64,000 nt of DNA from an uncultured Candidatus Saccharibacteria bacterium (lineage in GTDB: Bacteria; Patescibacteriota; Minisyncoccia; Phycocordibacterales; G965230995): contig OZ246398.1 in assembly GCA_965230995.1 (NCBI GenBank), positions 528,213-592,212 on the forward strand. The letters are read 5' to 3'. Below are positions 2,264 to 25,369 of this stretch, piece after piece. Made by a program: the position numbers and the translations under genes. Within the stretch, counting starts at the first letter, position 1. Each line of letters starts with the position of its first letter. The notes under the pieces were generated by a model that was not told the DNA's origin, made no database searches, and saw only the letters and a program-made list of their open reading frames with translations.

Positions 2264-2264
2264 A

Positions 2265-3554: not shown

Positions 3555-3693
3555 GTTTTTGCCAAATATATAAATTAAAAATGCCCTTGTTGGGCATATG
3601 TATATATTATCTATTTCTAAAAGGGCACTGTCAAGCAAAAAGTGGAAAAGAGAGGATAAAAAATAGGTGCTTGTCAATATCCATTTTTTCGGT

Positions 3694-4278
3694 ATGATAA
3701 TTAATATGTTTAAAAAAGAGGAAATTATAAGGTTAAAAGAGGGTGCATTGGCAGTTATCCCCACAGATACTTTATATGGATTGGTCACTACTACGAGAAA
3801 CAAGACGTCATACGAAAAACTTGTTCGTGTAAAAGGTATCAAACCTGAAAGAGTTGGATTTATTGTTTTAATTCCTGAAATTGAATCTCTAAAAGAGTTT
3901 GGAATTAAGCTTGGTGAATTTGAAGAAAAAATTTGCAAAAAGGCGTGGCCAGGACCATTTAGTATTGAATTTAAAATCAGAAGTGATTTTAAGGAAATGA
4001 CAGGTTTTGACGTCCCTGCATTTAGGGTTCCAAACAACGAAGACTTGCTTGCGCTACTAAAAGAGACAGGGCCTCTCTTTGCTCCTTCAGCAAATATAAC
4101 CAATATGCCACCATCAAAAACAATTTCCGAAGCAAAAAAATATTTTGGTGATCAAGTTGATTTTTATATAGATGCAGGGATTTTGGATAACCCACCATCT
4201 ACTGTAATTGCTTTTGATGGAGAAAAAATAATTATTAAAAGGCAGGGGTCTGGCGATATGCAATCTCTCGGTATTTAA
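3694..4278 (+). CDS. tsaC: L-threonylcarbamoyladenylate synthase (YrdC/TsaC family)
   Basis: IPTDTLYGLVTTT... YrdC signature. Start chosen at an internal Met (3694 or 3706) because the upstream part of the tracked ORF overlaps the divergent promoter region. Confidence 0.65.
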   Translation: MIINMFKKEEIIRLKEGALAVIPTDTLYGLVTTTRNKTSYEKLVRVKGIKPERVGFIVLIPEIESLKEFGIKLGEFEEKICKKAWPGPFSIEFKIRSDFKEMTGFDVPAFRVPNNEDLLALLKETGPLFAPSANITNMPPSKTISEAKKYFGDQVDFYIDAGILDNPPSTVIAFDGEKIIIKRQGSGDMQSLGI

Positions 4279-4296
4279 TATGTTACAATAATATAT

Positions 4297-5073
4297 ATGG
4301 AACCTATAAAAGGAATGAAGCAGATTTTTTTTATTTTCGGAGCAATAGTACTTGCGGTAGCTATATTATTTTCAATTTCATTTTTGCTAAAAAAGGATGA
4401 GGTCGTAGATGATACAAAAAATGACCTACCAAAATCAGGGTTTAAATCATTTGAAGTAGAAAGACCATTTTTTGTTATTGAATCTTCTGGATTTGAATCT
4501 GTTGCGATATATGGCGTGCCAACTGGAACAGATATAAAGGACTCTTCTCATGTTGCTATAGCGACGACGACTCTTGCGACAGAAAAAAACAATGAACAAA
4601 TATGGAAAGGTATGATTCCAAATGAACCAATTCTTCTTTCTGAAATATATGCAGTAGCGGTAGATTCTCTAGGAAATAAGTCAGAGAGATATTACTTTCC
4701 ACTAAAGGGAGCAAGTGATATTTACAATGCATTATGGTTCGAGACTCCATCAGAGGTTTTAGAACTTTTATTAAAAGATACTAAAGAGGTAAATGGAATA
4801 AAATTTGAATTAACAAAAATAATATCTGATAGTAGGTGCGGTGTAGATATTAATTGTATTTCTGCTGGTAGTGTCAAAATTGAAGTCATGGCGAAAGCAT
4901 ATGGAAAAGAAGAAAAGATAACACTGGATAGTATGGATAAAGAAAGCGTCTCTGTGTTTGGTCAAAAAATCACGTTCAAAAAAGTTTTGCCAGAGCGTGG
5001 CAAATCTCAAAGTATAATCAAAGACAGTGAATACAGAATATTTTTGCTGGTAGAACAAGAATCTAAAGAGTAA
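4297..5073 (+). CDS. Hypothetical membrane-anchored protein (N-terminal TM helix, 258 aa)
   Basis: Single hydrophobic helix IFFIFGAIVLAVAILFSISFLL then a soluble domain; no recognisable motif. Confidence 0.35.
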   Translation: MEPIKGMKQIFFIFGAIVLAVAILFSISFLLKKDEVVDDTKNDLPKSGFKSFEVERPFFVIESSGFESVAIYGVPTGTDIKDSSHVAIATTTLATEKNNEQIWKGMIPNEPILLSEIYAVAVDSLGNKSERYYFPLKGASDIYNALWFETPSEVLELLLKDTKEVNGIKFELTKIISDSRCGVDINCISAGSVKIEVMAKAYGKEEKITLDSMDKESVSVFGQKITFKKVLPERGKSQSIIKDSEYRIFLLVEQESKE

Positions 5074-5082
5074 AAAATATTT

Positions 5083-5769
5083 TTATATTTTTTTGTAACC
5101 GCTTCTAACAGGAGATTTCTTGATGGTGTCTATTATTTCGTCCAAATTATCTGTTAGTCTGTACAAATCAATATCAGCTGGGCTTACTGTTTTGTGTCTG
5201 ATTAAGTTGTTTATTATAAAGTCATGAAGAGGCCCCCAAAAATCTTTACCTACAAGGAAAATCGGAACTTTTTCAATTTTGTGTGTTTGCACGAGTGTGA
5301 GTATCTCAAAAAATTCGTCCATAGTTCCAAAGCCACCTGGAAAGAATAAATAGGCTTCGGCAGCAAATGAAAGACAAACCTTTCGGCTAAAGAAATAATT
5401 GAATTCCATACCGTTTGTTACATATCTGTTCATGCCTTGCTCTGACGGTAATTTAATCGACAGGCCCAAAGAATGCCCGTCTTTTTCAAATGCTCCTCTG
5501 TTTGCAGCTTCCATAATTCCTGGACCGCCACCAGAAAGAACAGAATATCCTAATTCTGTAACTATTCTTCCAGCAAGTTTTTTTGCGGTATCGTAATATT
5601 TGTTGTCAGAATCAAATCTGGCCGAACCAAAGAAAGTAACAGATCTCGGGTGACCTTGGATAAAACGGAAACCATTTATAAATTCGCCGGTAATTTTGCT
5701 AATTCTTTTTCCTGCTTCTTTTTGAATTTCTGCTAATGTTAGAGGATCGTATTCGGGTTCATTTTTCAT
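5083..5769 (-). CDS. LOG-family (TIGR00730) nucleotide phosphoribohydrolase
   Basis: GGGPGIMEAANRGA and PGGFGTMDEFFE motifs; probable start at MKNEPEYD (nt 5769) rather than the tracked 5820. Confidence 0.65.
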   Translation of the reverse strand: MKNEPEYDPLTLAEIQKEAGKRISKITGEFINGFRFIQGHPRSVTFFGSARFDSDNKYYDTAKKLAGRIVTELGYSVLSGGGPGIMEAANRGAFEKDGHSLGLSIKLPSEQGMNRYVTNGMEFNYFFSRKVCLSFAAEAYLFFPGGFGTMDEFFEILTLVQTHKIEKVPIFLVGKDFWGPLHDFIINNLIRHKTVSPADIDLYRLTDNLDEIIDTIKKSPVRSGYKKI

Positions 5770-5875
5770 ATATGTTAATTGTAATTTGTAAAGCCTTATT
5801 TGCAAAGGCAAAAGTCCCATAGATTTTTATAGTATTTTATGTTATCGTTTTTTTATATCAGATAATTTTTTTTGT

Positions 5876-6388
5876 ATGGATTTTCTTGCACAGCACAAGC
5901 CGGTATTTATAGGGATAGTTCTCCTTGTTCTTGCCACAAGTGTTTTTTCTCTTTTGAGCAATACTGATGAGAGAAACAAAAAGGCAGCTGTCGTCGAAGG
6001 TATACAAGATTTAGCTACAAATATGAATAGTGAATTAAAAATAGAAGACATTATCGTTGGAACAGGAAAAGAAGCTGTAAGCGGAAAAAATATTGTCGCA
6101 AATTACACTGGAAAATTTATTGACGGAACGATTTTTGATACAAGTCTGGAATCTTCAGCAAAATCAGGTGGTGTTTATAATCCAGCAAGACCATATGAAC
6201 CTTTTGAATTTACTCTCGGAGCAGGACAGGTAATCCAAGGTTGGGACAAGGGCTTTGCAGGTATGAAAGTTGGAGGAAAAAGAATTTTGACCATTCCTTC
6301 TGATTTGGCTTATGGACCAAATGATTATGGTCCAATTCCTGGGGGATCAACACTCGTTTTTGAAGTTGAACTCTTGGACGTAAAGTAA
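5876..6388 (+). CDS. FKBP-type peptidyl-prolyl cis-trans isomerase with N-terminal signal/anchor
   Basis: GKFIDGTIFDTS... FEFTLGAGQVIQGWDKGFAGMKVGGKRILTIPSDLAYG... LVFEVELLDV. Confidence 0.8.
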   Translation: MDFLAQHKPVFIGIVLLVLATSVFSLLSNTDERNKKAAVVEGIQDLATNMNSELKIEDIIVGTGKEAVSGKNIVANYTGKFIDGTIFDTSLESSAKSGGVYNPARPYEPFEFTLGAGQVIQGWDKGFAGMKVGGKRILTIPSDLAYGPNDYGPIPGGSTLVFEVELLDVK

Positions 6389-6392
6389 ACAA

Positions 6393-7604
6393 ATGCAAAA
6401 GCCGATTAGCTTTAAAATTACAAAAGAGCTTTCAGGTGAATTAGGTAGAAGCGCTATTCTTGAAACTCCACATGGGCAGGTGAAAACACCTGCTTTTGTG
6501 GTTGTGGGAACGAAAGCAACCGTTAAAGCAATCACTCCGGAAATGTTAAAAGAAACCGGAGCGCAGGTTGCTTTAGCAAATACATATCATCTATATTTGG
6601 AGCCCGGGGACGAAATTATTGCCAAGGCCGGTGGTTTGCATAAATTTATGAACTGGAATGGTCCTACCATGACTGACTCTGGTGGCTTTCAGGTTTTCTC
6701 TTTGGGCTCGGCATACGGGAAGGGAATATCAAAAATTCTCAAATCAACAGAAAAGGAATTAGCTCTCACTCATATTGAAAACGAAAATGAGATTCCAAAA
6801 ATTGCTCATATAGATAATGACGGGGTAATGTTTAGAGACCACTTGTCAGGAACGGCCCATTATTTCACTCCAGAAAAATCTATCGAGATTCAGCACAATA
6901 TTGGTGCTGATATTATTTTTGCTTTTGACGAATGCACATCTCCAACAGAAAGCAGACACTATCAAATGGAGGCTCTAGACAGAACTCATCGCTGGGCAAA
7001 GAAGTCGCTTGAATATCACAAATCAAAAAACAATTCAGAAAGGCAAGCTTTGTTTGGAATTGTTCAGGGTGGTAGGGATGAAGAATTGCGAAAAGAAAGC
7101 GCCCGTGTAATAGGGGAAATGGATTTTGATGGTTTTGGTATTGGTGGATCATTTGCAAAAGAAGATATGTCCACAGCAGTAAAATGGGTTAATGAAATTT
7201 TGCCAAAAGAAAAACCAAGACACCTTCTTGGGATAGGCGAGCCTCTCGATTTGTTTATGGGTGTTAGAAATGGTGTTGATCTCTTTGATTGTGTTGCTCC
7301 GACAAGGATGGCAAGAAATGGTGGGCTCTATACAAAATTTGGAAAGATAAATATTACAAATAGTAAATACACTGATGATTTTTCTGTAATTGACGAAAGT
7401 TGCGAATGCTATACCTGCAAAAATTATACCAAAGCATATTTAGCACATCTTTTCAGAGCAAAAGAAATGCTCGCGGGTACGCTGGCAACAATTCACAATA
7501 TACATTTTATAGTGAACCTCGTAGAAAAAATGAGGGCATCAATTGAAGATGGAACTTTTAATGAATTGGAAAAAGAGTTTTTCTCCACATACAAAGAAAA
7601 ATAG
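6393..7604 (+). CDS. tgt: Queuine tRNA-ribosyltransferase
   Basis: Zn-binding CECYTCKNYTKAYLAHL and the catalytic region are conserved; length 403 aa. Confidence 0.85.
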   Translation: MQKPISFKITKELSGELGRSAILETPHGQVKTPAFVVVGTKATVKAITPEMLKETGAQVALANTYHLYLEPGDEIIAKAGGLHKFMNWNGPTMTDSGGFQVFSLGSAYGKGISKILKSTEKELALTHIENENEIPKIAHIDNDGVMFRDHLSGTAHYFTPEKSIEIQHNIGADIIFAFDECTSPTESRHYQMEALDRTHRWAKKSLEYHKSKNNSERQALFGIVQGGRDEELRKESARVIGEMDFDGFGIGGSFAKEDMSTAVKWVNEILPKEKPRHLLGIGEPLDLFMGVRNGVDLFDCVAPTRMARNGGLYTKFGKINITNSKYTDDFSVIDESCECYTCKNYTKAYLAHLFRAKEMLAGTLATIHNIHFIVNLVEKMRASIEDGTFNELEKEFFSTYKEK

Positions 7605-7660: not shown

Positions 7661-9712
7661 ATGTCGATTTTTAAACTTCATTCTGAATACAAGCCTGCCG
7701 GCGATCAGCCAAAGGCAATAAAAAATCTGCTAGATGGTCTTCAAAAAAAAGAACGCTATCAGACTCTTTTAGGCGTGACTGGATCCGGCAAGACCTACAC
7801 AATGGCAAATGTGATAGAAAAAATTGGCAAACCCACTTTGGTGATTGCTCACAACAAAACTCTTGCTGCTCAGCTTGCCCAAGAATACAGAGAATTTTTT
7901 CCAGAAAACGCAGTACACTATTTTGTCTCATATTATGATTACTATCAGCCGGAAGCATATATACCAGTCACAGATACATACATAGAAAAAGAAGCTCAAA
8001 TAAACGAAGAGATCGAAAGACTTCGACATGCCTCAACACAAGCCTTGCTTACTAGAAAGGATGTGATAATAGTCGCGTCTGTTTCTTGTATTTACGGATT
8101 GGGAAGCCCAGCAGAATACGAAAAAGTACATTTAAAAATTAAAAAAGGTGAAAAATCAGACAGAGCCATTTTAATCAGAAAACTCGTAGATATTCATTTC
8201 GAGAGAACAAATGCCGATTTACTACCTGGTCTTTTTCGAGCAATCGGAAATATGGTCGAAATTATGCCTGTTAACGAAAGAATTATATACAGAATTTCAT
8301 TTTCAAATGGAGAGATTTCAGACATAGAAAAAATTGATGCCATAACCAGAGAAATATTATCTAACGAAAATTTATTTTATCTATTTCCCGCTAAGCATTT
8401 CATTACAGATAAAAATGAAATTGAAAGAGCTATAAAAGATATTCAAGATGAATTAAAGGCCAGATTAAAAGAATTAGAAGACTCCGGAAAAATACTCGAG
8501 GCAGAGAGATTAAAGAGAAGAACTTCTTATGACCTCGCAATGATTCGTGAAATTGGCTACTGCAACGGTATCGAAAATTACTCGCGACATTTTTCTGGCA
8601 AAAAACAGGGCGAAGCTCCAGATACACTGCTTTCATATTTTCCTCACAAAGAAAATGGGGAGCCAGATTTTCTGACTATTATAGATGAATCTCACGTGAC
8701 TGTTCCGCAAATTGGTGCAATGTATGCTGGGGATGCTTCGAGAAAGCAATCTTTGGTTGATCACGGTTTTAGATTGCCATCTGCAAAAGACAATAGACCG
8801 CTGACATTTCCAGAATTTGAAAAAAGAGTCGGACAAGTAATATTTACTTCTGCTACGCCAGGAGATTTTGAAAGAGAAAAATGTCCAAAAATGGTTGAAC
8901 AGATTATCAGACCAACAGGTTTGATTGACCCAGTAATAGACGTAAAGCCAGTTACGGGAAATGAAAATTACAATGGTCAAATAAAAGATTTGATTGAGGA
9001 GTCGCAAAAAGCCATTTCAAAAGGTGGCCGTGTTATCGCCACAACCCTTACAAAAAAGATGGCAGAAGATCTCTGTGATTTTCTAAAGGAAAAGGGTATA
9101 AGCACTGCATATTTGCATAGTGATATAAAAACAATAGAGAGAATAGAAATAATATCTGATTTTAGAAAAGGTAAATACGATATTTTGGTTGGGGTGAATT
9201 TGCTCAGGGAGGGACTCGATATGCCAGAAGTTACTTTGATTGGAATACTTGATGGAGACAAAGAAGGATTTTTGCGATCAGAAACTTCTCTTATCCAAAT
9301 AATAGGTAGGGCAGCGAGAAATTCCCTCGGACGCGTGATTATTTATGCTGATAAAATAACAAAAGCAATAAATTATGCGATAAACGAAACAACTCGCAGA
9401 AGAGAAATACAAAACAAATACAATACAGAAAATAATATCACTCCAAAGACTATAATCAAAAAGATAAACGATATTACAGAGAGTATTAAATCGGAACATC
9501 AAAAAACTGTTTCTTCTTTGGTTGCTATCGATAAAACATTAAAAGGGGGTGATATTAAAAAAGTTATTGCAATGAAGGAAAAGCAGATGAACGGTGCAGT
9601 AAAGATATTAGATTTTGAAAGCGCCGCTATTTTGAGAGATGAGATTGCAGAGCTCTCAAAACTTCTTCCACAGGAAAAGCAGAAAAAAACTATCAAACGA
9701 AAAGCTTCGTGA
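7661..9712 (+). CDS. uvrB: Excinuclease ABC subunit B
   Basis: GVTGSGKTYTMANVI Walker A, helicase motifs, C-terminal UVR domain (AAILRDEIAELSK). Confidence 0.9.
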   Translation: MSIFKLHSEYKPAGDQPKAIKNLLDGLQKKERYQTLLGVTGSGKTYTMANVIEKIGKPTLVIAHNKTLAAQLAQEYREFFPENAVHYFVSYYDYYQPEAYIPVTDTYIEKEAQINEEIERLRHASTQALLTRKDVIIVASVSCIYGLGSPAEYEKVHLKIKKGEKSDRAILIRKLVDIHFERTNADLLPGLFRAIGNMVEIMPVNERIIYRISFSNGEISDIEKIDAITREILSNENLFYLFPAKHFITDKNEIERAIKDIQDELKARLKELEDSGKILEAERLKRRTSYDLAMIREIGYCNGIENYSRHFSGKKQGEAPDTLLSYFPHKENGEPDFLTIIDESHVTVPQIGAMYAGDASRKQSLVDHGFRLPSAKDNRPLTFPEFEKRVGQVIFTSATPGDFEREKCPKMVEQIIRPTGLIDPVIDVKPVTGNENYNGQIKDLIEESQKAISKGGRVIATTLTKKMAEDLCDFLKEKGISTAYLHSDIKTIERIEIISDFRKGKYDILVGVNLLREGLDMPEVTLIGILDGDKEGFLRSETSLIQIIGRAARNSLGRVIIYADKITKAINYAINETTRRREIQNKYNTENNITPKTIIKKINDITESIKSEHQKTVSSLVAIDKTLKGGDIKKVIAMKEKQMNGAVKILDFESAAILRDEIAELSKLLPQEKQKKTIKRKAS

Positions 9713-9724
9713 TATAATTTCTAT

Positions 9725-10468
9725 ATGGATAATAAAGACGAAAGGAAGGACGAATCCGACCTCCTTGTAGTTGCTCATCAAATACAGGCGCCCTTAGCTG
9801 CTGTAAAATGGACTCTTTCAATGCTTGAAAATGGTGATGTGGGGAAGTTAACCAAAGACCAATTAGAGCTTGTAGATAAAGCTCAAAAGAGCAATGCACG
9901 CGCGATTCGTTTTATCGAAGATTTGCTTTCGGTTACAAAACTTGAATATGGCGGAGAAAATCTTGATTACTCTCTAGTCCCAATTATAGATGTTATTCAT
10001 GACACGATACACGAACTATCACCTGTCGCAAAAGAAAAGGGCGTTAAAATAATTGTAAACGATTTCAAAAGCGAAAGCCCTCTTATCGAAATAGACAAAG
10101 AAAAAATCAGAAGCGCTTTCGAAAATATTTTGGATAATGCAATAAAATATTCTGGACAAGATGGTTCAGTTGTAATCAATCTAGTAAAAGAAAGCACTGA
10201 TGTTTTAATTTCTGTTGATGATTCTGGTATTGGAATAAGCGAAGAAGACGAATCCGATTTGTTTAAAAAATTCTTTAGGAGCAGGCAAGCAAGAGAAACG
10301 GGTGCCGCGGGTACTGGTCTCGGTCTATTTATTGCAAAGCGAATAATAGAAAAACATGGCGGTAAAATATGGTTTGAAGACAAAAAAAGAGACTTACACC
10401 TAAAACAATCCGGTGCAAGATTTTCATTCACCATTCCTTTTAAAGTAATTGATGATATGGTAATATAA
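9725..10468 (+). CDS. Soluble sensor histidine kinase (HisKA + HATPase_c only, no sensor/TM domain)
   Basis: H-box VAHQIQAPL, N/G boxes (ILDNAIKYS, DDSGIGI, GTGLGLFIAKRIIE). Confidence 0.7.
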   Translation: MDNKDERKDESDLLVVAHQIQAPLAAVKWTLSMLENGDVGKLTKDQLELVDKAQKSNARAIRFIEDLLSVTKLEYGGENLDYSLVPIIDVIHDTIHELSPVAKEKGVKIIVNDFKSESPLIEIDKEKIRSAFENILDNAIKYSGQDGSVVINLVKESTDVLISVDDSGIGISEEDESDLFKKFFRSRQARETGAAGTGLGLFIAKRIIEKHGGKIWFEDKKRDLHLKQSGARFSFTIPFKVIDDMVI

Positions 10469-10491: not shown

Positions 10492-10875
10492 ATGGACCAA
10501 AAACTAAAAGGAAAGAAGATAATGTGGATCGAAGACGATCAGTTTCTAAGCGGTATAATAGCCCAAAAATTATCTTCACACGGCGGAACTCTCGTACACT
10601 CTTCAAATGGCGAAGACGGTCTTGCTATGGCAAGAAAAGAACTCCCAGATGTCCTTATATTGGATATCCTTTTGCCAGGGCTGTCAGGTTATGATGTCTT
10701 AGCTGGTATTAAAGATGATCCAAAAACAAAAGATATTCCGGTTATAATGTTTTCAAACCTCGGAGATCCAGAAGACATGAAAAAAGCAAGCGAGCTTGGA
10801 GCAACGAAATTCTTGATGAAAGCTACTATCGTTCCAGAGGAATTGGTAGAAGAAATTCTTAAAGTAATAAAATAG
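10492..10875 (+). CDS. Stand-alone response-regulator receiver domain (CheY-like, no output domain)
   Basis: MWIEDD... LDILLPGLSGYDVL... IPVIMFSNLG receiver motifs. Confidence 0.7.
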   Translation: MDQKLKGKKIMWIEDDQFLSGIIAQKLSSHGGTLVHSSNGEDGLAMARKELPDVLILDILLPGLSGYDVLAGIKDDPKTKDIPVIMFSNLGDPEDMKKASELGATKFLMKATIVPEELVEEILKVIK

Positions 10876-15888: not shown

Positions 15889-15964
15889 GGGCCCGTAGCT
15901 CATCTGGTAGAGCACTTCACTTGCACTGAAGGGGTGGCAGGTTCGAGTCCTGTCGGGTCCACCA
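15889..15964 (+). tRNA. tRNA-Ala (anticodon TGC), CCA encoded
   Basis: Manual cloverleaf: acceptor GGGCCCG/CGGGTCC with the G3:U70 alanine identity pair, D-arm GCTCATCTGGTAGAGC, anticodon loop CTTGCAC, T-arm GCAGG-TTCGAGT-CCTGT, 3' ACCA. Confidence 0.85.
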
Positions 15965-16005
15965 CAAATATAAAACCGGCTTCAATGCCGGTTTTATATT
16001 TGTGG
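15962..16005. terminator. Perfect 19-bp inverted repeat (CCACAAATATAAAACCGGC-ttcaat-GCCGGTTTTATATTTGTGG) overlapping the tRNA CCA; likely intrinsic terminator
   Basis: Read directly: GC core stem followed by a T-rich run on the right arm. Confidence 0.5.
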
Positions 16006-16093: not shown

Positions 16094-16113
16094 AGGTTCG
16101 AGTCCTGTCGGGT
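16094..16113 (+). repeat. Direct repeat of 20 nt of the tRNA-Ala T-arm/acceptor segment (AGGTTCGAGTCCTGTCGGGT); att-like footprint
   Basis: Exact 20/20 identity with tRNA positions ~51-70 (15939-15958), 130 bp downstream of the intact tRNA. The sequence diverges exactly where the tRNA continues with CCACCA. Confidence 0.6.
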
Positions 16114-16205
16114 AGCTCAGATATTTTAGGAGTGAAACGAACTAAAATATCCACGAGAGTGACCGAGTCCTTCATAATCATTATGTTATGTTATAAAGTA
16201 ACATG

Positions 16206-16222: not shown

Positions 16223-16429
16223 ATGAATGATGAATCAGTGAGACTTGGTATAAATCTGAGAAAGGTAAGAATGGTTAAGGAAAAGTCTCAGACTGATATC
16301 GCACATAATTTGGGAGTTAGTCGCGGCTTCATAAGTATGATAGAAAATGGAAAAACAAATCCAACACTTACAACAATATCAAAGCTGGCAAAGTCGGTTG
16401 GCGTTTCCATTGATGAACTTTTGAAATAA
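16223..16429 (+). CDS. XRE-family HTH protein, likely R-M controller (C) protein (68 aa)
   Basis: Canonical Cro/C1 HTH (QTDIAHNLGVSRGFISMIENGKTNPTLTTISKLAKSVGVS); position immediately upstream of the M and R genes. Confidence 0.6.
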   Translation: MNDESVRLGINLRKVRMVKEKSQTDIAHNLGVSRGFISMIENGKTNPTLTTISKLAKSVGVSIDELLK

Positions 16430-16433
16430 ATTT

Positions 16434-17432
16434 ATGTCCAAAACAAAATTAAAAAATTTAAAATTTATGGACTACTGTGCCGGAATTGGTGCAGGTCGTA
16501 TTGGCCTTGAAAGAAACGGGCTAACCTGTGTCGGTTTTTCTGAAATTGATAGACAAGCAGAAAAAACTTATAGAAAATTTTTTGGTGAGGGCGAAACAAA
16601 TTATGGGGATTTGATGAAAATTGATACAAGTAAATTACCAGATTTTGACATGATGATCGCAGGTTTTCCATGTCAAACTTTTTCCGTTATTGGACAAAGA
16701 AAAGGAATGCAAGATGAACGAGGACAGATTATTTATGGACTTATCAAGATAATGCTTGATAAAAATTTAAAATATTTCATTTTAGAAAATGTAAAGGGAT
16801 TAACAAATCATGACAATGGAAATTCTCTTAAGGTTATTTTAAGTGAATTAGATAAGGCAGGTTATAAGGTTTTTTATCAGGTTTTAAATAGTGTCGATTA
16901 TGGTGTCCCCCAGATGAGGGAGAGAATTTATTTTGTTGGCATAAGAAAAGATTTAGTTCCAAATAATTTTCAATTTTATTTTCCAGAACGCCAACCAAGA
17001 GCTGATGTTAAAGATTATCTAATTGATACTAAAGAGCTTGAATTTGATGAGAAAAAAGTTGCGTACGAGACTTTTTTGAAATATTTAAATAACAAATACA
17101 ATAAAGGACAACATGATATTAAAGAAATTCTTAAACAAGATTATTTAGTTATAGATACAAGACAATCTGATTTAAGAATTTATATAAATAAAGTACCAAC
17201 ACTTCGAACTGGCAGACACGGGATTTTATATGTAAAAGACGGAAAATTTAGAAAATTATCAGGATATGAATCATTGTTACTTCAGGGTTTTCCAAAAGAA
17301 CTCGCAAAAAAAGTCGATGGAGTTATCGAGGAAATACATTTATTAAAACAAACAGGAAATGCTATGACAGTCAATACCATTGAAGCCATTGCGAGAGAGC
17401 TGTTTAATACACTAGAAAAACATGAAAAATAA
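16434..17432 (+). CDS. DNA (cytosine-5)-methyltransferase
   Basis: Motif I YCAGIGAG, motif IV GFPCQTFS, motif VI ENVKG, motif VIII QMRERIYFVG, motif X QTGNAM. Confidence 0.85.
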   Translation: MSKTKLKNLKFMDYCAGIGAGRIGLERNGLTCVGFSEIDRQAEKTYRKFFGEGETNYGDLMKIDTSKLPDFDMMIAGFPCQTFSVIGQRKGMQDERGQIIYGLIKIMLDKNLKYFILENVKGLTNHDNGNSLKVILSELDKAGYKVFYQVLNSVDYGVPQMRERIYFVGIRKDLVPNNFQFYFPERQPRADVKDYLIDTKELEFDEKKVAYETFLKYLNNKYNKGQHDIKEILKQDYLVIDTRQSDLRIYINKVPTLRTGRHGILYVKDGKFRKLSGYESLLLQGFPKELAKKVDGVIEEIHLLKQTGNAMTVNTIEAIARELFNTLEKHEK

Positions 17433-18201
17433 TAAAAAGAAAAATTTAAAACAAATGATAGCTCTCGGCTCAAAAACCGCAAAAGGCGGATTTACCAATG
17501 AACAAGATGTTATTGATCGTTTTAATAACTGGAAAACAGATAAAGTTGCTCAAGAATGGCTTGCAGAAATGAATTACAAAATTGACGATATTGAGTTTGT
17601 AAAAGCGTCAAAAGTCAGAGGTCAATACAAAGCTGATATTCAAGTGCGAATAACTATTTTGATTAAATTAAAATCTCAGGAAGATTTACAAAATTTACAA
17701 GTAAAACTAGTAAGCAATCCGCAAGGATTTAATCAGATAGATAAAAGATGGGTTGATAAATATGTTGAGCTTTGGAATATTCCAAGTAATATTGTAAAGA
17801 TTTTGAAACTTTTTACGGGTGAAATTGCACCAATAAATAATGACTTGCGAGACCCTCGCAGAATGTTTTTAGATGAAATGAGTGAATCTGATCAAAATAA
17901 GTTAATCAATTTCATTAAAGAAAATAAGATTCTTATTGTTTCTGATTTGCTAAAAGGACGAGGCGAATTTTCTGCTGATTGGACCTTGGTTATTCTGAAA
18001 GTGAACGGAAAGAATGCTTGGGTTTTAAAATCAATAAATCATGTCATGAATGTTTTTGGGGCTGGTGATATTCGTATAACACGAGAAGGAAGTTTGAAAA
18101 TCGGAAAAATCGGAATGCAAAGAAAGGGGGGTGATGGTGGTCGTGATACTGCTAAAATGTTGCAGTTTAAAATAAACCCCGTTGAATTGTTTGAGAAGTA
18201 G
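17422..18201 (+). CDS. Type II restriction endonuclease, MspI/HpaII-like (putative CCGG specificity)
   Basis: Position immediately after, and overlapping, the C5-MTase. C-terminal ...GGDGGRDTAKMLQFK resembles the ...KAKKMQFKG C-terminus of R.MspI as I recall it (from memory, unverified). Confidence 0.45.
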   Translation: MKNNKKKNLKQMIALGSKTAKGGFTNEQDVIDRFNNWKTDKVAQEWLAEMNYKIDDIEFVKASKVRGQYKADIQVRITILIKLKSQEDLQNLQVKLVSNPQGFNQIDKRWVDKYVELWNIPSNIVKILKLFTGEIAPINNDLRDPRRMFLDEMSESDQNKLINFIKENKILIVSDLLKGRGEFSADWTLVILKVNGKNAWVLKSINHVMNVFGAGDIRITREGSLKIGKIGMQRKGGDGGRDTAKMLQFKINPVELFEK

Positions 18202-18214
18202 TTTTTGATTATTT

Positions 18215-20788
18215 ATGTCTAGTAAAATATTAAAAATAAATAAGGGTTCTGAATGGAGAAAGTGGGATTTACACCTACACTCTTTTTACACATCCATAAA
18301 TAATAAATTTTCGTCTTCTAGTGTTGATGATTATTTAAATAAAATTTCTAATGAAAATATTGAAGTTGTTGGATTAACTAACTATTTTAATTTTAGTGAT
18401 GACGACTGGAAGTTAAAAGAAAAATTGGAATCTAAAAACGTTGTTGTATTTTTGAATCTAGAACTACGATTAACTTACACTAATAAAGAAGATGATTGTT
18501 GTGATATACACATAATATTTTCAAATGATCTGACAAAGGAAAATATTAATACTTTTTTAACAAAATTAAACTGCTCAATATCTGGGTCACAAAAAACCCT
18601 TAGCACAATCACTACACAGGCAGATAAGACAAGTGCTGTAGTTGAGTTTTCTAAGATTATAGAAGTATTGAACGATCCAGCTGTATCTGAGCTAAAAAAT
18701 AAAATTCTTATAGGCATGCTTTCTCGAGGTAAAGGTAATTCGAGAAGCTCAAAAATGTACGCGTCTCTTACTAAAGATTGCAATTTTATAATTCATTCTT
18801 CTGAAAAAGTTAAGAATATTGATGATGATCTAAAATATTGGTCTGGGAATGATATCAAAAAACCCATAAAGAATAAAGCGTTATTTCAAAGTAGCGACGC
18901 ACATAGTATAGACGATATTGGTAAAAAATATTCTTGGGTTAAGGGTAACGCATGTTTTGAGACATTAAGGCAGTCAGTTGTAGACTATGAAAATAGAATT
19001 TTGATACAGGAAAGAAACCCTGCTGATAGTAAAAATGCCTCCCTTGAACTATTTATCGATAAAATAGAATATAAAGAAGGTAAAAAAACACACATTTTAT
19101 ATTTTAATAAAGACATAAATTCAATTATTGGTAAGAGAGGTGCTGGAAAATCTGTTTTGATTAAACACATAGCTTTTAATATCCTTGGGGGATCTTCTGT
19201 TAAAAAAATATCAAAACTTAATGATTTTAAAATATATTGGTGTGATGGTAAGTCTGAAAATAAATTTGTTGAATATATTCCACAAAATTATCTATCGTCA
19301 ATAACTTATGAAGATGGTGACAAATACGATAAACGCGACCAAGAACTTAGAACTCGATTATTTAATAACGAGCTATTTAAAAATGCCGACAAGACAAAAG
19401 TTGAGGCTATTAACTCCATAGAATTGAAAATTTATGAAAAAATAAAAGAATCTATAAGTCTACATAAACAAATAATTGAAACCAGTATCCAACTAAAACC
19501 ATTGGGAATTATTACAGATAAAGAAAAAGCTATAAAAACAAAGCAAGAGGAAATCAATAAAATTGGTAAAGTAAATATTAGTGATACAGATATTGAAAAT
19601 CAAAAAAAATATGTATCGGAAATAGAAATTTTGGAAAGAGAGATTAAACTTTTAACACAAGATGTTCAGATATTAGAAACTATAAAAAAAGATGGTGATT
19701 TAAGTTTTATCACTGTTGACGACGATGTGTTTTTGGGATTATCACAATCGACATTAGGTTTAATTAAAAAACAAATAAAAAAACTTTCTAGTAAAGAAAT
19801 TAAATCTTATTTAGAAAGTTTATTTGAGGAATTTAAAAATACAATTAATGAAAAGGAGAAAATAAGATTAACTACTGAAAATAATCTAAAGCCGATTAAT
19901 AAAAAACTACAGAAAAACAAAACGATAGAAAAAATACTAAAAGAAGTTAATAAACTTGAGAGTGATAGAAAAGAAATTGAAAATCTCAATAGATTTGTTA
20001 AGGATAGTAATAATAAAAAAGAAGTTTTGATCAATGAAATTGTTGATCTGTATTTATCCTTTAAAGACAAAATTGATGGCATTGTAAAATCTCTGAAAGA
20101 TAAATTTAATAGTTTTACTTTTATAACTTTTGATTTTACTGTTAGTTATAATACAGATTTATACAAAAAGGCGTTTTTTGATGTATATATCGACGCTCGA
20201 TCAGGCGAAAGATTTAGAAAGTTTATTGATGAGAAAAGAGATTTTAAAAAAGATGAAATATTAGAAATAGTTAATGATATTGTTTCTTGTTCGGATAAAG
20301 CAAAACTTAAAACTACAGGCGGAGATATGGAAAGTGCTTTAGTCACTCTTTTAAGTTGTAAGTATGATATAGATTTTACTAAATCAGTTAAATATAAGGA
20401 CAATAAAACTCTTGTCGATTTTGAAAATATGACTGGAGGACAAAAAGCAATGGCATTACTTGATTTAATTTTTAATCTTTCAAAGGGTGGTTATCCTATA
20501 ATTATTGATCAACCAGAAAATGATATAGATGTTTCTGGAATTTCAAATGAGTTAAGGAAATTGATAATAGATCAAAAAGAAAAAAGACAGGTGATAATGG
20601 CAACACATAGTCCAAACTTACTTTTACTAACTGATTCTGAAAACGTGGTAGTAGCAGAAAACGAGAGTAATAATATTGAGTATCACAATGGAGGAATTGA
20701 GGATTCTAAAATTCAAAATGAAATTGTAACTATTCTTGAGGGTGGTAAAAATGCACTAATGAAAAGAATGGAGAAATTGAACATCTAG
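18215..20788 (+). CDS. Fusion of an N-terminal PHP-like phosphoesterase domain with a Rad50/SbcC/OLD-type ABC ATPase containing a long coiled-coil insert (857 aa); putative defence nuclease
   Basis: N-terminal WDLHLHSFYT and VVGLTNYFNF (PHP motifs I/II). Walker A GKRGAGKS at ~aa 305, Lys/Glu-rich coiled coil ~aa 420-720, then signature MTGGQKAMALLDL, Walker B PIIIDQPENDID and H-loop MATHSP. Confidence 0.55.
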   Translation: MSSKILKINKGSEWRKWDLHLHSFYTSINNKFSSSSVDDYLNKISNENIEVVGLTNYFNFSDDDWKLKEKLESKNVVVFLNLELRLTYTNKEDDCCDIHIIFSNDLTKENINTFLTKLNCSISGSQKTLSTITTQADKTSAVVEFSKIIEVLNDPAVSELKNKILIGMLSRGKGNSRSSKMYASLTKDCNFIIHSSEKVKNIDDDLKYWSGNDIKKPIKNKALFQSSDAHSIDDIGKKYSWVKGNACFETLRQSVVDYENRILIQERNPADSKNASLELFIDKIEYKEGKKTHILYFNKDINSIIGKRGAGKSVLIKHIAFNILGGSSVKKISKLNDFKIYWCDGKSENKFVEYIPQNYLSSITYEDGDKYDKRDQELRTRLFNNELFKNADKTKVEAINSIELKIYEKIKESISLHKQIIETSIQLKPLGIITDKEKAIKTKQEEINKIGKVNISDTDIENQKKYVSEIEILEREIKLLTQDVQILETIKKDGDLSFITVDDDVFLGLSQSTLGLIKKQIKKLSSKEIKSYLESLFEEFKNTINEKEKIRLTTENNLKPINKKLQKNKTIEKILKEVNKLESDRKEIENLNRFVKDSNNKKEVLINEIVDLYLSFKDKIDGIVKSLKDKFNSFTFITFDFTVSYNTDLYKKAFFDVYIDARSGERFRKFIDEKRDFKKDEILEIVNDIVSCSDKAKLKTTGGDMESALVTLLSCKYDIDFTKSVKYKDNKTLVDFENMTGGQKAMALLDLIFNLSKGGYPIIIDQPENDIDVSGISNELRKLIIDQKEKRQVIMATHSPNLLLLTDSENVVVAENESNNIEYHNGGIEDSKIQNEIVTILEGGKNALMKRMEKLNI

Positions 20789-20914
20789 GGAGCCTGCTCG
20801 CACCCATCTTGCCCTTGCGGGCTTGGTTTATGTACATACAAACGGGGATGGTGGGCCAGTGTGCAATACGAATTTGATTCGTTTCACCTATTGTGAGAGT
20901 GTTTGTGGCTTTCA

Positions 20915-21580
20915 TTAAACCCACTTAACCCCTTTCTTCCCAACGCTCACCAAATAATCATTAGTTTTGCTGAAATGCTTACAGCCGAAAAAGCCACTAT
21001 ATGCAGAAAATGGTGATGGATGTGGAGCCTCTAATATTAAATGTTTTTTGGAATCAATTAGTCCCTTTTTATTTCTCGCATAGTTTCCCCACAAAATGAA
21101 AACAACATTTTCTTTTTTATCTGAAATAGTTTTGATTATGCTATCAGTAAAAATCTCCCAGCCTTTGTTTTGATGTGACCCGGCAATTCCAGCTCGCACT
21201 GTTAGTGTTGCATTTAAAAGCAAAACACCTTGTTTTGACCAGTGTTCTAGATTTCCATTATTAGGAATTTCTCCTCCTATATCATTTACTATTTCCTTGT
21301 AAATATTTTTTAATGATGGGGGAATTGGAATATTTTCAGGTACAGAAAAACACAAACCGTGAGCTTGGTTTGGTCCGTGATATGGGTCTTGTCCTAATAT
21401 AACTACAGAGACGTTATCGAATGGGCAGAATCTGAAAGCATTAAAAACAAATTTTGGTGGCGGATATATTTTTGTCGAAAGATATTCATTTCTGACAAAA
21501 ACCGAAAGTTCCTTCCAATATGGCTTTTGGAATTCGTTTTCTAGCGCGTTTTTCCAGCTTTCTTCGATATCGATTTTCAT
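20915..21580 (-). CDS. ung: Uracil-DNA glycosylase (family 1)
   Basis: GQDPYHGPNQAHGLCFSV and HPSPFSA motifs. Confidence 0.85.
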   Translation of the reverse strand: MKIDIEESWKNALENEFQKPYWKELSVFVRNEYLSTKIYPPPKFVFNAFRFCPFDNVSVVILGQDPYHGPNQAHGLCFSVPENIPIPPSLKNIYKEIVNDIGGEIPNNGNLEHWSKQGVLLLNATLTVRAGIAGSHQNKGWEIFTDSIIKTISDKKENVVFILWGNYARNKKGLIDSKKHLILEAPHPSPFSAYSGFFGCKHFSKTNDYLVSVGKKGVKWV

Positions 21581-22815: not shown

Positions 22816-23379
22816 ATGATAAAGATAAACGAAACCGTGCCTGATTTTTCGACTAGGGCATATCACAATGGAAAATTTACGGATATAAAGCTTTCAGATT
22901 ACAAAGGCAAATGGGTAGCTGTTGTTTTTTATCCTGCTGATTTTACTTTTGTTTGTCCAACAGAACTTGAAGATTTGCAAAATTATTATGAAGAATTTAA
23001 AAAGGCTGGAGCCGAAATACTTTCAGTTTCAAAAGATACTGAATTTGTTCATAAGGCATGGCACGATAATTCGCCTGCGATAGGAAAAATTACATATCCT
23101 ATGCTTGCAGATCCAACTGGAAAATTATGTAAACTCTTTGGTACGTATATCGAGGATGATGGTCTCTCGCTACGCGGTACATTTTTGATTGATCCAAACG
23201 GAATTTTGAAAACAATAGAAATTCACGATAACAGTATCGGAAGGAACGCAAAAGAATTACTTCGAAAAGTCCAAGCGGCAAAATTTGTATCAGAAAATGA
23301 TGGGCAAGTCTGTCCAGCTAGCTGGGAACCTGGAAAAGACACCCTCACACCAGGTGAAGATTTGGTAGGGAAGATTTAA
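22816..23379 (+). CDS. 2-Cys peroxiredoxin (AhpC/Tsa family)
   Basis: FTFVCPTEL peroxidatic-cysteine motif and resolving Cys in VCPA near the C-terminus. Confidence 0.85.
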   Translation: MIKINETVPDFSTRAYHNGKFTDIKLSDYKGKWVAVVFYPADFTFVCPTELEDLQNYYEEFKKAGAEILSVSKDTEFVHKAWHDNSPAIGKITYPMLADPTGKLCKLFGTYIEDDGLSLRGTFLIDPNGILKTIEIHDNSIGRNAKELLRKVQAAKFVSENDGQVCPASWEPGKDTLTPGEDLVGKI

Positions 23380-23391
23380 AAAATAATAAAA

Positions 23392-23426
23392 CAGCACGGA
23401 TGCCTTCGGCATCCGTGCTGTTTTAT
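23392..23426 (+). terminator. Rho-independent terminator (CAGCACGGATGCC-ttcg-GGCATCCGTGCTG + TTTTAT)
   Basis: 13-bp GC-rich stem with UUCG loop and a T-run. Confidence 0.65.
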
Positions 23427-23555
23427 GTGTGGATAAAAATTTGACAATACCGATAAAAATTGTAGCATTAATCAGATGACCGCCACTGTGTGACGGTCTG
23501 ACACCTTCGGGTGTCGCATTATTTCCAACGGTGTGTTAGTGAAGGAGTTAGTCTT

Positions 23556-23798
23556 ATGGCTGACCAGCACCAGGGCCTGAGGAAGCGTATCAAGGAGATC
23601 CTCAAGGGCCAAAAGGTGGACATCAACACCGTGAACAGGGTGATGAAGCCGTTTGAGAACGGCGACATCAACGGCGGCATTTCGATGGCGAAGCGGTTGC
23701 TTCCTCCCGTTGTCTCGCAGGCGATCGAGAGGGCGGTCTCTGACCGGTTCAATCGCCGGGAAGTCACTACCAAGTTCCGGCTCGCGGACGCCTCGTAG
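23556..23798 (+). CDS. Hypothetical 80-aa protein encoded in a GC-rich insert (foreign codon usage)
   Basis: Strong SD GAAGGAG (23541-23547) 8 nt before ATG; MADQHQGLRKRIKEILKGQKVDINTVNRVMKPFENGDINGG...; G/C-ending codons throughout, unlike all neighbouring genes. Confidence 0.4.
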   Translation: MADQHQGLRKRIKEILKGQKVDINTVNRVMKPFENGDINGGISMAKRLLPPVVSQAIERAVSDRFNRREVTTKFRLADAS

Positions 23799-23959
23799 TC
23801 GGCAAGTTTCCAGCGGGTTCCCACCTTCTAGCCAAGGGTGGGGCCCGCAGCTAGTCCGTAGTTCTTTTTTGTTCATTTGTAATGTTGAGGGCGGTACTAT
23901 GGTTTCCATAGGCCGCTTTGTTTGTTTATAAAATCAACATGTTAAGATATAATCACAAT

Positions 23960-25369
23960 ATGAACAACATTTTACCGACGACTTTTATAATAATGGGTGT
24001 TACTGGAGATTTGGCAAAAAACAAACTACTCCCTGCTCTCGCTGACTTGTCGGTAAAGAATCTATTACCAAAAGATTTTAGAATCGTTGGCTTTTCCAGA
24101 AGAGAAATGTCCCCTGATGAATATAGTAATTTTGTAAAAGAGTCTCTTGATAAAAAACAGAAATATTCAGACAAACAGATTTCTGATTTTATCGAACGCA
24201 CAGAATATGTTCGTGGGGATTTCAGTAGTCTAGAAAGTTTTAAAAATCTAAAGGCAAGAGTGACAGAAATAGATAATGAAAGAGGTGTTTGCGGTAATAA
24301 AATGATATATCTTTCTGTACCGCCTTCACTTTACGAAACCTTGTTTGAAAATATTTCAAAATCAGGATTATCAAAACCTTGTGGTGGCGAAAATGACTGG
24401 GCGAGAATTCTTGTTGAAAAGCCATTTGGAAACAATACAGAAACTGCAAAAAAATTAGAAGAAAAGCTTTCTGCAAATTTTAAAGAAGAACAGATTTTTA
24501 GAATTGACCATTATCTTGCAAAAGAAGTTTTGCAAAATATTTTGACATTTAGGTTCAGTAACACAATGTTTGAACCTTTGTGGAATAAAAAACACATAAA
24601 ATCAGTCCATATACATTTCTTTGAATCTGGTGATGTATCAAAAAGGGGAACATTTTATGATTCGATCGGGGCTCTTCGTGATGTGGGGCAAAATCATATG
24701 CTTCAAATGCTTGCGCTCATAGCAATGGAAAAACCAAAAAATTTCATCTGCGCTGATATACGAAAAGAAAGGGCTAAAGCTCTTTCAAAATTAAAGATAA
24801 ATGGTAGTGAATTTCTTCGGGGGAGATATGTTGGTTATACAAGCGAAGATGGAGTGTCACCAGAATCACAAACAGAAACATTTTTCAGTCTTAAAACCTA
24901 TGTAGATAATTCTAGATGGAAAAATGTGCCGTTTTTCCTTGTGAGCGGAAAAGCGTTAAAAGAATCTAGAGTTGAGATAAAAATACGTTTTATCGATCCA
25001 GATCCTTCTTCTGTTCTTCCGATTGAATATCCAGACCAGGAACAAAATACTCTAACTTTTAGAATACAGCCTCACGAAGGAATCGGTCTTTTGTTTTGGT
25101 TTAGGGTGCCTGGCTTTGGTTCAAAAATCGAACCTCAAACATTAAAATTCAATTATGCAGATAGTGAGAGCTCGCGAGTGATCCCAGATGCTTATGAAAA
25201 GGTTCTCTATGACTGTATATCCGGAGACCAGACTCTTTTTGCAAGCAGTAAAGAGGTGGAGTTTTCATGGAAATATATTACAAAAATTATGGATCTATGG
25301 AAAAACTCTCCAATGATAGAATATGAAAAGGGAAGCGACCCGTTTTCTATCGGCAAGCAAAAAAAATAG
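23960..25369 (+). CDS. zwf: Glucose-6-phosphate 1-dehydrogenase
   Basis: NADP-binding IMGVTGDLAKNKLLPAL and active-site RIDHYLAKE; start at MNNILP (23960). Confidence 0.85.
   Translation: MNNILPTTFIIMGVTGDLAKNKLLPALADLSVKNLLPKDFRIVGFSRREMSPDEYSNFVKESLDKKQKYSDKQISDFIERTEYVRGDFSSLESFKNLKARVTEIDNERGVCGNKMIYLSVPPSLYETLFENISKSGLSKPCGGENDWARILVEKPFGNNTETAKKLEEKLSANFKEEQIFRIDHYLAKEVLQNILTFRFSNTMFEPLWNKKHIKSVHIHFFESGDVSKRGTFYDSIGALRDVGQNHMLQMLALIAMEKPKNFICADIRKERAKALSKLKINGSEFLRGRYVGYTSEDGVSPESQTETFFSLKTYVDNSRWKNVPFFLVSGKALKESRVEIKIRFIDPDPSSVLPIEYPDQEQNTLTFRIQPHEGIGLLFWFRVPGFGSKIEPQTLKFNYADSESSRVIPDAYEKVLYDCISGDQTLFASSKEVEFSWKYITKIMDLWKNSPMIEYEKGSDPFSIGKQKK

Follow-up and report, generated by a model that had tools for sequence, protein, structure and literature searches.

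A TrlF-family PHP–ABC ATPase homologous to Ppl at the end of a type II restriction-modification operon in a Saccharibacteria genome

Open reading frame (ORF) 18215..20788 (+) lies in a 64,000-nucleotide stretch of contig OZ246398.1, from an uncultured Candidatus Saccharibacteria bacterium, which was analysed as a whole and is called the window below. It raises the question of what a single polypeptide that joins a PHP phosphoesterase domain to a Rad50-like ATPase might do directly behind a restriction-modification (R-M) operon. The product, 857 amino acids (aa) read from an ATG start codon, is a full-length homologue of the Escherichia coli anti-phage protein Ppl and belongs to a separate, already catalogued sister family, TrlF. 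Architecture, family and likely mode of action are all already known, and the explanation that we favour, with a probability of roughly 0.55 for the whole of it, is a Ppl-type single-chain effector acting downstream of restriction.

Four regions could be delimited along the protein:
18242..19024 (+), PHP phosphoesterase domain, aa ~10–270, from the N-terminal domain model, Foldseek and conservation
19052..19315 (+), N-terminal lobe of the ATP-binding cassette (ABC) head, aa ~280–367, with Walker A G306–S313 and Q-loop Q357
19316..20089 (+), antiparallel coiled coil, aa ~368–625, from DSSP on the model, invariant columns and the positions of Cys residues
20090..20785 (+), C-terminal lobe of the ABC head, aa ~626–857, with signature MTGGQK (739), Walker B IIIDQPE (762), H-loop H798 and C-terminal LEGG

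All six motifs quoted in a preliminary description of the locus were found, WDLHLHSFYT at aa 17, VVGLTNYFNF at aa 51 and GKRGAGKS at aa 306 in the first half, and MTGGQKAMA at aa 739, IIIDQPENDID at aa 762 and ATHSP at aa 796 in the second, and its reading of the protein as a PHP domain followed by a split ABC ATPase held for both parts. The AlphaFold model of aa 1–275 (predicted local distance difference test, pLDDT, 86.8; predicted template modelling score, pTM, 0.87) gave 24 Foldseek matches in the PDB at E<=1e-3, every one of them a PHP domain, with template modelling scores of ~0.45–0.52. These included the PHP domains of the DNA polymerase III (Pol III) alpha subunits of Thermus, E. coli and M. 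tuberculosis (DnaE1), with 3e0d at E 3.8e-6, as well as TM0559, RNase AM, PsfC and BAD_1165; the next hit reached only E 0.035. The N-terminus is accordingly modelled as a PHP fold, a distorted TIM barrel, with the conserved pairs H20-x-H22 and D228-x-H230 that are expected of this superfamily.

Over its C-terminal ~580 aa the protein is an ABC ATPase whose two lobes are separated by a coiled coil. The full-length AlphaFold model, built on 30 homologues (alignment A1) and with a mean pLDDT of 84.6, retrieved ABC heads with coiled coils in Foldseek at E-values of 2e-10 to 1e-4, the best being the SMC structure 5xei (E 2.4e-10) and the others including MukB, JetC, RecN, Rad50, cohesin and condensin SMCs, LmuB of Lamassu and AriA of PARIS. 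Among the Pfam models AAA_21 was marginal (27.4 bits for a cut-off of 27), and AAA_23, SMC_N and ABC_tran remained below threshold. The elements of an SMC/Rad50-type ABC ATPase, namely Walker A, Q-loop, signature, Walker B Asp, H-loop and a coiled coil between the lobes, are all present. The coiled coil (17 % K, 12 % E) does follow Walker A as first described, with a length of ~260 aa (368–625) and not ~400 aa; residues 626–735 form the alpha/beta portion of the ATPase head. At the tip of the coiled coil (~493–525) F506, L509 and S510 are conserved, and no Cys is present between aa 344 and 691, so that a CxxC zinc hook is absent from this tip.

The protein had initially been left without a named defence family, and such an assignment can now be made. 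It passes the NCBIfam model NF045780, 'TrlF family AAA-like ATPase', with 396.3 bits (cut-off 350; E 4.6e-118) in a single full-length stretch that places aa 10–855 on positions 1–943 of the 944 of the model, and the eight other homologues tested, from plasmids, phage and the candidate phyla radiation (CPR), all pass it too. It is not a member of the Ppl equivalog itself: NCBIfam NF042955 gave 101.7 bits for a cut-off of 1000 with its best stretch at aa 705–854, the PADLOC Ppl model PDLC02208 gave 96.5 bits at aa 711–854, and the sister NCBIfam model Spaf_1101 gave 137 bits for a cut-off of 475. Full-length homology to Ppl became visible when profiles were compared. With the RefSeq-annotated ppl gene of an E. 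coli IncFIA plasmid as reference, hhalign aligned the TrlF profile to Ppl over 776 collinear columns (profile positions 19–864, Ppl 2–889) at a probability of 99.8 % and E 6.4e-29. The landmarks shared along this alignment are GSxWxKxDxHxH, the Glu and His of PHP motif III, SDAH and the Walker A G-x-RG-x-GKS in the N-terminal half, and the signature G-Q-K, the Walker B D-Q-P-E-D/N-D, the H-loop and the C-terminal EGG-x-x-A in the other. Both proteins, of similar length (857 and 891 aa), have in one chain and in the same order a PHP domain, the Walker A lobe, the coiled-coil insert, the lobe with signature, Walker B and H-loop, and the terminal EGG. A solved structure of Ppl was not found in the PDB by phmmer, profile search or Foldseek, which returned AriA and generic ABC/SMC/Rad50 heads only. 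No relevant source for the name TrlF was found in the searchable literature; the tRNA-associated 'trl' locus of H. pylori was considered and set aside as a coincidence of names, no connection to the TrlF family being found.

The state of the catalytic residues was followed in a motif alignment of 83 members, comprising genome, plasmid and phage TrlF proteins and E. coli Ppl. On the ATPase side the Walker A Lys, the signature Gly, the Walker B Asp and the H-loop His are found in 83/83. Equally constant, Ppl included, is the Walker B sequence D-Q-P-E (window 20507–20518, aa 765–768), in which Gln766 occupies the place of the catalytic Glu that follows the Walker B Asp in SMC/Rad50-type ATPases. 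A phmmer alignment to AriA puts Gln766 at AriA residue 393, and the engineered change E393Q eliminates ATP hydrolysis in AriA, the wild-type form of which has the catalytic Glu and needs hydrolysis (PMC10802264). The Glu that ends the TrlF motif is unlikely to compensate, because AriA also carries this downstream Glu (D-E-P-E). Since Gln replaces the catalytic Glu throughout the family, TrlF and Ppl look, from their sequences, like natural nucleotide-binding heads with impaired hydrolysis, sensors and not motors, and a poorly hydrolysing head agrees with the NTP (nucleoside triphosphate) sensing reported for Ppl.

At the PHP site, E83 and D228 are conserved in 83/83 members, H22 in 78/83, H20 and D18 in 76/83 and H230 in 71/83, and H99 is invariant in a 30-sequence alignment. 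With Ppl as reference for 12 PHP motif positions, the window protein keeps seven of them (D18, H20, H22, E83, H99, D228 and H230). As far as residue conservation can tell, the core of the metal site appears to be under strong constraint, yet not identical to that of Ppl. In at most five of the 83 members a His of the HxH pair or the preceding Asp has given way to Gln, Glu or another residue while the ATPase motifs are intact, and these may be nuclease-dead variants.

What such a protein could do is suggested by Ppl, which protects E. coli against phage as a stand-alone gene and whose product has PHP and ATPase domains. Second hand, PMC12904381 describes Ppl, with no reference given there, as a single-stranded DNA 3'-5' exonuclease that NTPs inhibit at both the PHP and the NTPase domains; for this inhibition PMC13434339 cites Xu et al., Mol Cell 2026, and both sources report activation by 3'-OH ends generated by phage homing endonucleases. 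By analogy, the PHP domain of TrlF, a metal-dependent phosphoesterase, would be the nuclease effector, and the ABC head, with Gln for the catalytic Glu, would bind nucleotide and dimerise and barely hydrolyse. Head and coiled coil could then form a clamp or sensor that depends on nucleotide, and probably on DNA ends, and that holds the PHP domain off in healthy cells; a drop of the NTP pools together with free DNA ends would allow the PHP domain to degrade DNA from those ends.

The source of such ends may be sought in the genes next to trlF, which form with it a small islet between host genes:
15889..15964 (+), tRNA-Ala(UGC), left border of the islet, by ARAGORN and the Rfam tRNA model (63.6 bits)
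16094..16113 (+), exact 20-nt repeat of the tRNA-Ala 3' part that is first present at 15939–15958, an att-like scar upstream of the cassette
16223..16429 (+), controller (C) protein of 68 aa, helix-turn-helix, by PADLOC Control_protein (5.5e-13) and HTH_VI (1.6e-13)
16434..17432 (+), type II cytosine-5 DNA methyltransferase (M), by PADLOC MTase_II (1.2e-104) and NCBIfam dcm (278.8 bits)
17422..18201 (+), type II restriction endonuclease (R) of the R.HinP1I family, by Pfam R-HINP1I (3.1e-85) and PADLOC REase_II (2.8e-97)
18215..20788 (+), TrlF-family PHP–ABC ATPase, Ppl homologue of 857 aa, by NCBIfam NF045780 and hhalign to Ppl
16332..20877 (+), mobile cassette block by blastn, with the 3' part of the C gene, M, R, TrlF and ~90 bp downstream
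20915..21580 (-), ung, uracil-DNA glycosylase (NCBIfam, 332.8 bits), convergent host gene and right border

The position behind an R-M operon in a tRNA-linked islet, as described beforehand, was confirmed, with 13 bp between the stop codon of the endonuclease and the start of TrlF. The four genes have a G+C content of 29.2 %, compared with 36.2 % and 35.4 % in the flanks, and it returns to 36–38 % at ung. The repeat of the tRNA-Ala gene gave two matches with none expected from 100 shuffles; its copies are 155 bp apart, with a perfect 19-bp hairpin (15962–16005) between them. The copy at 16094–16113 looks like the scar or site of a former integration beside the R-M/TrlF islet; a third copy was not found at the right end. 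Just 5' of the C gene, a palindrome ATGTTA-N5-TAACAT (~16186–16202) is a plausible candidate for the C-box operator of the R-M operon and of TrlF with it. Promoter and terminator scans were uninformative, as promoter-like sites were no more frequent in the islet than in shuffled sequence, and an Rfam scan of the whole window returned tRNA only. From this gene order, trlF would be co-transcribed as the last gene of the C-M-R type II operon, and the endonuclease would cut unmethylated invading DNA, at the ends of which TrlF would enter to destroy the fragments.

The four genes also travel together. Positions 16332–20877 of the window aligned with 2011–6555 of a second locus (L096) in a single high-scoring segment pair of 4,551 bp at 86.8 % identity, with unrelated flanks; at the protein level M is 94.9 %, R 93.6 %, TrlF 87.5 % and C 61.8 % identical. 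In L096 the block lies after dnaJ, ~215 bp downstream of tRNA-Gln and before ykuD, and in the window it follows tRNA-Ala at a distance of ~260 bp. Because it is kept whole near different tRNA genes and between unrelated flanks, C-M-R-TrlF behaves as one transferable unit. Genes for tRNA also border R-M and TrlF units at L005 (tRNA-Arg with a tyrosine integrase), L008 (tRNA-Gln) and L009 (a cluster of four tRNAs).

This mobility bears on a housekeeping role. To the left of the islet lie, in order, uvrB (7661–9712), ORFs 9725–10468 and 10492–10875, uvrA, uvrC, ddl and the tRNA-Ala gene, and uvrB, uvrA, uvrC, ddl and ung, together with an SMC/Rad50-like head with a coiled coil, would suit a single-chain analogue of SbcCD or Rad50–Mre11 in DNA repair. 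We consider this highly improbable: the islet in which the gene lies is low in GC and has a tRNA gene at its border, the cassette recurs between dnaJ/tRNA-Gln and ykuD in the other genome, the family is patchy and rich in plasmid and phage members, and the protein has no zinc hook, a PHP domain that is not of Mre11 type and no Walker B Glu of the Rad50 ATPase cycle.

The association with restriction extends well beyond the type II operon of the window. In a close set of 17 contexts, encoding proteins at least 30 % identical to that of the window and including the window itself, trlF immediately adjoins a co-oriented R-M system in 14, at spacings of -11 to +13 bp (identity to the window protein is given first):
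window, C protein, cytosine-5 methyltransferase and R.HinP1I
88 %, P0001, the same C-M-R.HinP1I cassette as in the window
80 %, P0003, EcoRI-methylase-like protein and GmrSD_N/HNH
70 %, P0007, EcoRI-methylase-like protein and GmrSD_N/HNH
68 %, L011, EcoRI-methylase-like protein and GmrSD_N/HNH
68 %, P0021, type I, hsdM-rhuM-trlF-hsdS-hsdS-hsdR
62 %, P0022, single-chain type ISP-like R-M overlapping trlF by 11 nt, then DUF2130
57 %, P0047, Dam methyltransferase, DpnII and N6_N4 methyltransferase, 4-nt overlap
56 %, P0058, type I, hsdM-trlF-hsdS-x-hsdR
66 %, L012, type I
48 %, L013, type I
34 %, L029, type I
37 %, P0097 (Saccharibacteria), N6_N4 methyltransferase and EcoO109I-family endonuclease
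36 %, P0105 (6.4-Mb genome), helix-turn-helix protein with type III Mod and Res
68 %, P0016, no R-M recognised
32 %, L014, no R-M recognised
30 %, L015, no R-M recognised

The partners belong to type I, type ISP, three distinct classical type II systems, the pair of EcoRI-methylase-like and GmrSD-HNH proteins, and type III. Set against the small share of R-M genes among prokaryotic genes in general, and not against a matched background rate, an adjacency due to chance is unlikely in the close clade. At least four unrelated R-M types are found with TrlF proteins that have 62–88 % identity among themselves, which implies repeated re-pairing with R-M systems. These systems have no protein in common, and all that unites them is that each makes double-strand breaks in unmodified DNA. 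It is for this reason that a hand-off, in which restriction ends are the substrate or trigger of TrlF, is favoured over contact in the manner of PrrC, and it is held with moderate confidence.

Linkage could also arise if TrlF were an independent single-gene defence, like Ppl, that makes no use of restriction products and merely travels with R-M, its position reflecting clustering in defence islands, shared mobility or stabilisation by an addictive R-M module. The description of Ppl as a single-gene system is in line with this, as are the many distant trlF genes in defence settings other than R-M (described below), the figure of only at least 27/79 genome loci with a clustered R-M gene within three ORFs, and the unrelated accessory genes, RhuM and DUF2130, that are embedded in those type I loci as well. 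On the other side stand the 14 of 17 close contexts with a directly adjacent and co-directional R-M system, the repeated location of trlF between hsdM and hsdS, where it must be co-transcribed, and the association of closely related TrlF proteins with four or more R-M types, which implies repeated re-association and not one inherited accident. We regard the independent role as a serious rival that is less probable than a coupling to restriction.

The count of 27/79 comes from a conservative clustering and is a lower bound, many R-M proteins being singletons, and the set of 80 genome loci from which it derives is mostly far more distant from the window protein than the close clade. Among the co-directional upstream neighbours in the 80 loci R-M families predominate, with Methylase_S (9), N6_Mtase (8), ResIII (7), Eco57I (6), HSDR_N (4), HsdM_N (4), N6_N4_Mtase (3), EcoRI_methylase (2), DNA_methylase (2) and GmrSD_N with HNH (2), and downstream AlbA_2/HATPase_c_4 (14) predominates, ahead of DUF2130 (4), HsdR-type helicases and RhuM. 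The first of these downstream partners is a protein of ~390–420 aa with SLFN_AlbA_2 and HATPase_c_4 domains, encoded 3' of trlF at -19 to +3 bp in distant loci (among them L066, L072, L073, L075, L081–L083, L086, L088 and L089; 18 proteins in the cluster), which may form with trlF a two-gene variant of the system. DUF2130 genes lie directly beside trlF, upstream in plasmid pNP40 (L090 5662–6945), downstream in L098 (7568–8830) and in four genome loci, and RhuM-family genes are inserted beside trlF within type I operons, as in the P0021 locus.

TrlF might instead be a back-up guard of R-M, of the PrrC/RloC or PARIS type, that stays silent for as long as restriction functions and fires as an abortive-infection nuclease once an anti-restriction factor of a phage has disabled it. 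TrlF is embedded in type I operons (L007 and the P0021 locus), as prrC is. PrrC-type silencing needs direct contact with its R-M partner, and the partners of TrlF share no subunit. By sequence, the ATPase head has its closest solved relative in AriA of PARIS, a sensor of the anti-restriction protein Ocr, and for PrrC, an ABC ATPase–nuclease fusion, PMC3458546 reports an invariable linkage to a type I R-M locus. TrlF carries neither an anticodon nuclease nor a Toprim partner domain, and the mechanism reported for Ppl is one of DNA-end and NTP sensing and not of anti-restriction sensing. A guard function is on balance improbable.

The Ppl-type effector downstream of restriction, which remains the preferred explanation, has to be set against a number of observations that weigh on the other side. 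Pfam sequence models recognised no PHP family in the whole protein or in aa 1–282, and the PHP assignment consequently rests on the predicted structure and on the profile alignment to Ppl. Five of the 12 tabulated PHP positions differ from Ppl, namely the H19/D20 pair (S27/I28), the motif-II D-H (N56/Y57, with Tyr at the His position in 55/83 members) and the motif-IV His (S170), and the metal site of the window protein, hence its catalysis, may differ from that of Ppl. In the close set, no R-M gene was recognised next to trlF in P0016, L014 and L015; of the 72 loci at greater distance at least 22 have a clustered R-M gene, and the AlbA_2/HATPase_c_4 protein and DUF2130 are other recurrent partners of trlF. 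Ppl protects as a stand-alone gene and in principle needs no partner. The trigger reported for Ppl is 3'-OH overhangs, whereas cleavage by HinP1I, DpnII, EcoO109I and enzymes of type III produces 5' overhangs. The searchable literature contains no paper on TrlF and no experiment on a TrlF member, and adjacency, co-transcription and operon membership are no proof of functional dependence. It is the autonomy of Ppl, the polarity of the overhangs, the other neighbours of distant trlF genes and this last point that keep the confidence in a hand-off at a moderate level. A further step, which we put forward tentatively and as rather less than probable, would be to regard R-M and TrlF as one composite system, in which a portable, nucleotide-gated and end-loading PHP exonuclease is a 'second stage' that needs the breaks made by the preceding endonuclease and has been recruited repeatedly behind type I, ISP, II and III operons, especially in small-genome Patescibacteria.

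The family as a whole is large. Among scored candidates 1,087 homologues were found at E<=1e-5, the best 88 % identical, and 1.84 billion representatives searched with a profile gave 9,033 matches at E<=1e-3, 6,675 at E<=1e-10 and 2,742 at E<=1e-30, the last being clusters at 50 % identity; nearly all matches are single-stretch, full-length proteins of 850–1,000 aa. The nearest relatives carry the source labels Paceibacterota, Patescibacteria, Saccharibacteria, Dojkabacteria and WS6, from which the window most likely belongs to a CPR bacterium with a small genome, and a scan of one genome per species gave at least 556 relatives across Patescibacteria, Bacillota, Actinomycetota, Pseudomonadota, Bacteroidota and some archaea. 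By tblastn, 1,083 plasmid records contain a homologue, 805 of them conjugative, and most are annotated 'TrlF family AAA-like ATPase'. In the lactococcal phage-resistance plasmid pNP40, trlF follows a DUF2130 gene and lies between an LlaJI R-M region with two methyltransferases and an Abi gene; a paper on the lactococcal plasmidome (PMC11381338) makes no mention of PHP or DUF2130 and gives no sign of a test of the pNP40 TrlF. An IncR Enterobacter plasmid has trlF between Gabija-like genes (ATP-binding protein and UvrD helicase) and an Abi gene, and in a Levilactobacillus plasmid it adjoins type I hsdR and hsdS. Seven phage records matched. In the P2-like Yersinia phage vB_YenM_42.18 (L093 2898–5516), a gene for 872 aa annotated 'chromosome partition protein Smc' scores 464.8 bits with the TrlF model and 126 bits with the Ppl model; it occupies the variable slot flanked by gpA (replication) and gpQ (portal), the defence hotspot of P2. 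R-M operons, conjugative plasmids with Abi or Gabija-like genes and the gpA–gpQ slot bear out the expectation of the preliminary description that homologues occur in defence and not in housekeeping contexts. In several genomes trlF appears split or truncated (L012 6953–9570 of WS6 bacterium OLB20, L053, L058 and L070/L071), with an ORF of 497–722 aa followed by a second piece, which suggests frameshifts or pseudogenisation in some of them.

To the right of ung, the window continues with genes for a BrxC-like thiol protein, a bPH-domain protein, a peroxiredoxin and a glucose-6-phosphate dehydrogenase (G6PD). Between the last two, a small ORF of 80–95 aa (MADQHQGLRKRIKEIL...; 23511–23798, +) lies in a GC-rich stretch (peak 23200–24100, sliding-window maximum 48 %) of this 35 % GC genome; GC-rich hairpins flank it, and Rfam finds no family there.

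The elements that are possibly new are comparative: the near-obligatory embedding in R-M operons of every type within a CPR-rich clade, the D-Q-P-E motif throughout the family and the partly reduced set of PHP ligands. The coupling of TrlF to R-M is possibly an undescribed feature. The family, which comprises no fewer than 2,742 clusters and occurs in over 1,000 plasmid records, shares the hydrolysis-disabled Walker B of Ppl, and this supports a general reading of these ABC heads as nucleotide sensors. Should the linkage be functional, it would show restriction coupled to exonucleolytic clean-up in a simple two-component model, in small genomes that may lack RecBCD-type enzymes. If R-M and TrlF were indeed one composite system, a repairable cut would be turned into irreversible destruction of the invader, and TrlF would be the first Ppl-type sensor fed by a host-encoded rather than a phage-encoded endonuclease.

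Compared with known systems, TrlF resembles SbcCD/Mre11–Rad50 in having an ABC head that an antiparallel coiled coil divides in two and that is functionally joined to a metal-dependent phosphoesterase, and Rad50 is among its structural matches. It differs from them in being a single chain, in its PHP fold instead of a calcineurin-like one, in the lack of a CxxC motif, in the Gln for Glu substitution and in being mobile and not part of the core genome; neither a CxxC hook nor a separate Mre11/SbcD nuclease accompanies the head. The comparison with a one-polypeptide SbcCD made at the outset is for these reasons a loose analogy. Of the label 'Rad50/SbcC/RloC/OLD-class', the part that stands is the structural neighbourhood of SMC, Rad50, RecN and JetC; the OLD label does not, as Pfam, PADLOC and NCBIfam gave no hit to the C-terminal Toprim domain of that class and the C-terminus is an ABC head. 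Membership in OLD/Gabija, Lamassu, Septu or MADS was considered and rejected, since the PADLOC hits were weak and partial (negligible for LmuB and PtuA) and the partner domains absent.

PrrC and RloC also combine an ABC ATPase and a nuclease in one polypeptide, RloC with a Rad50-like region according to PMC3458546. TrlF differs in its N-terminal PHP domain instead of a C-terminal anticodon nuclease, in the missing zinc hook and in having all R-M types as partners; the anticodon-nuclease domain was not found with Pfam, PADLOC or NCBIfam, and the PHP domain is the only domain of nuclease type. AriA is the best match by sequence among solved structures, and LmuB of Lamassu and JetC of Wadjet are among the fold matches. 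All three are, like TrlF, defence ABC/SMC ATPases that control a nuclease, which in their case, unlike in TrlF, is a separate protein (the Toprim protein AriB, LmuA and JetD).

Closest of all is Ppl, to which TrlF is ~20 % identical in the hhalign alignment and which, like TrlF, occurs on conjugative plasmids; the plasmid ppl gene inspected has no adjoining R-M system, whereas an R-M operon ends with trlF in the window. Within its own family the window protein lies at the low-scoring edge (396 bits compared with 450–587 for most of the other homologues tested, two CPR relatives having 396–403) and is shorter, with 857 aa for a model of 944 positions, and it belongs to a Patescibacteria-rich clade in which the linkage to R-M is near-obligatory, with trlF nearly always at the end of an R-M operon or inside it, irrespective of R-M type.

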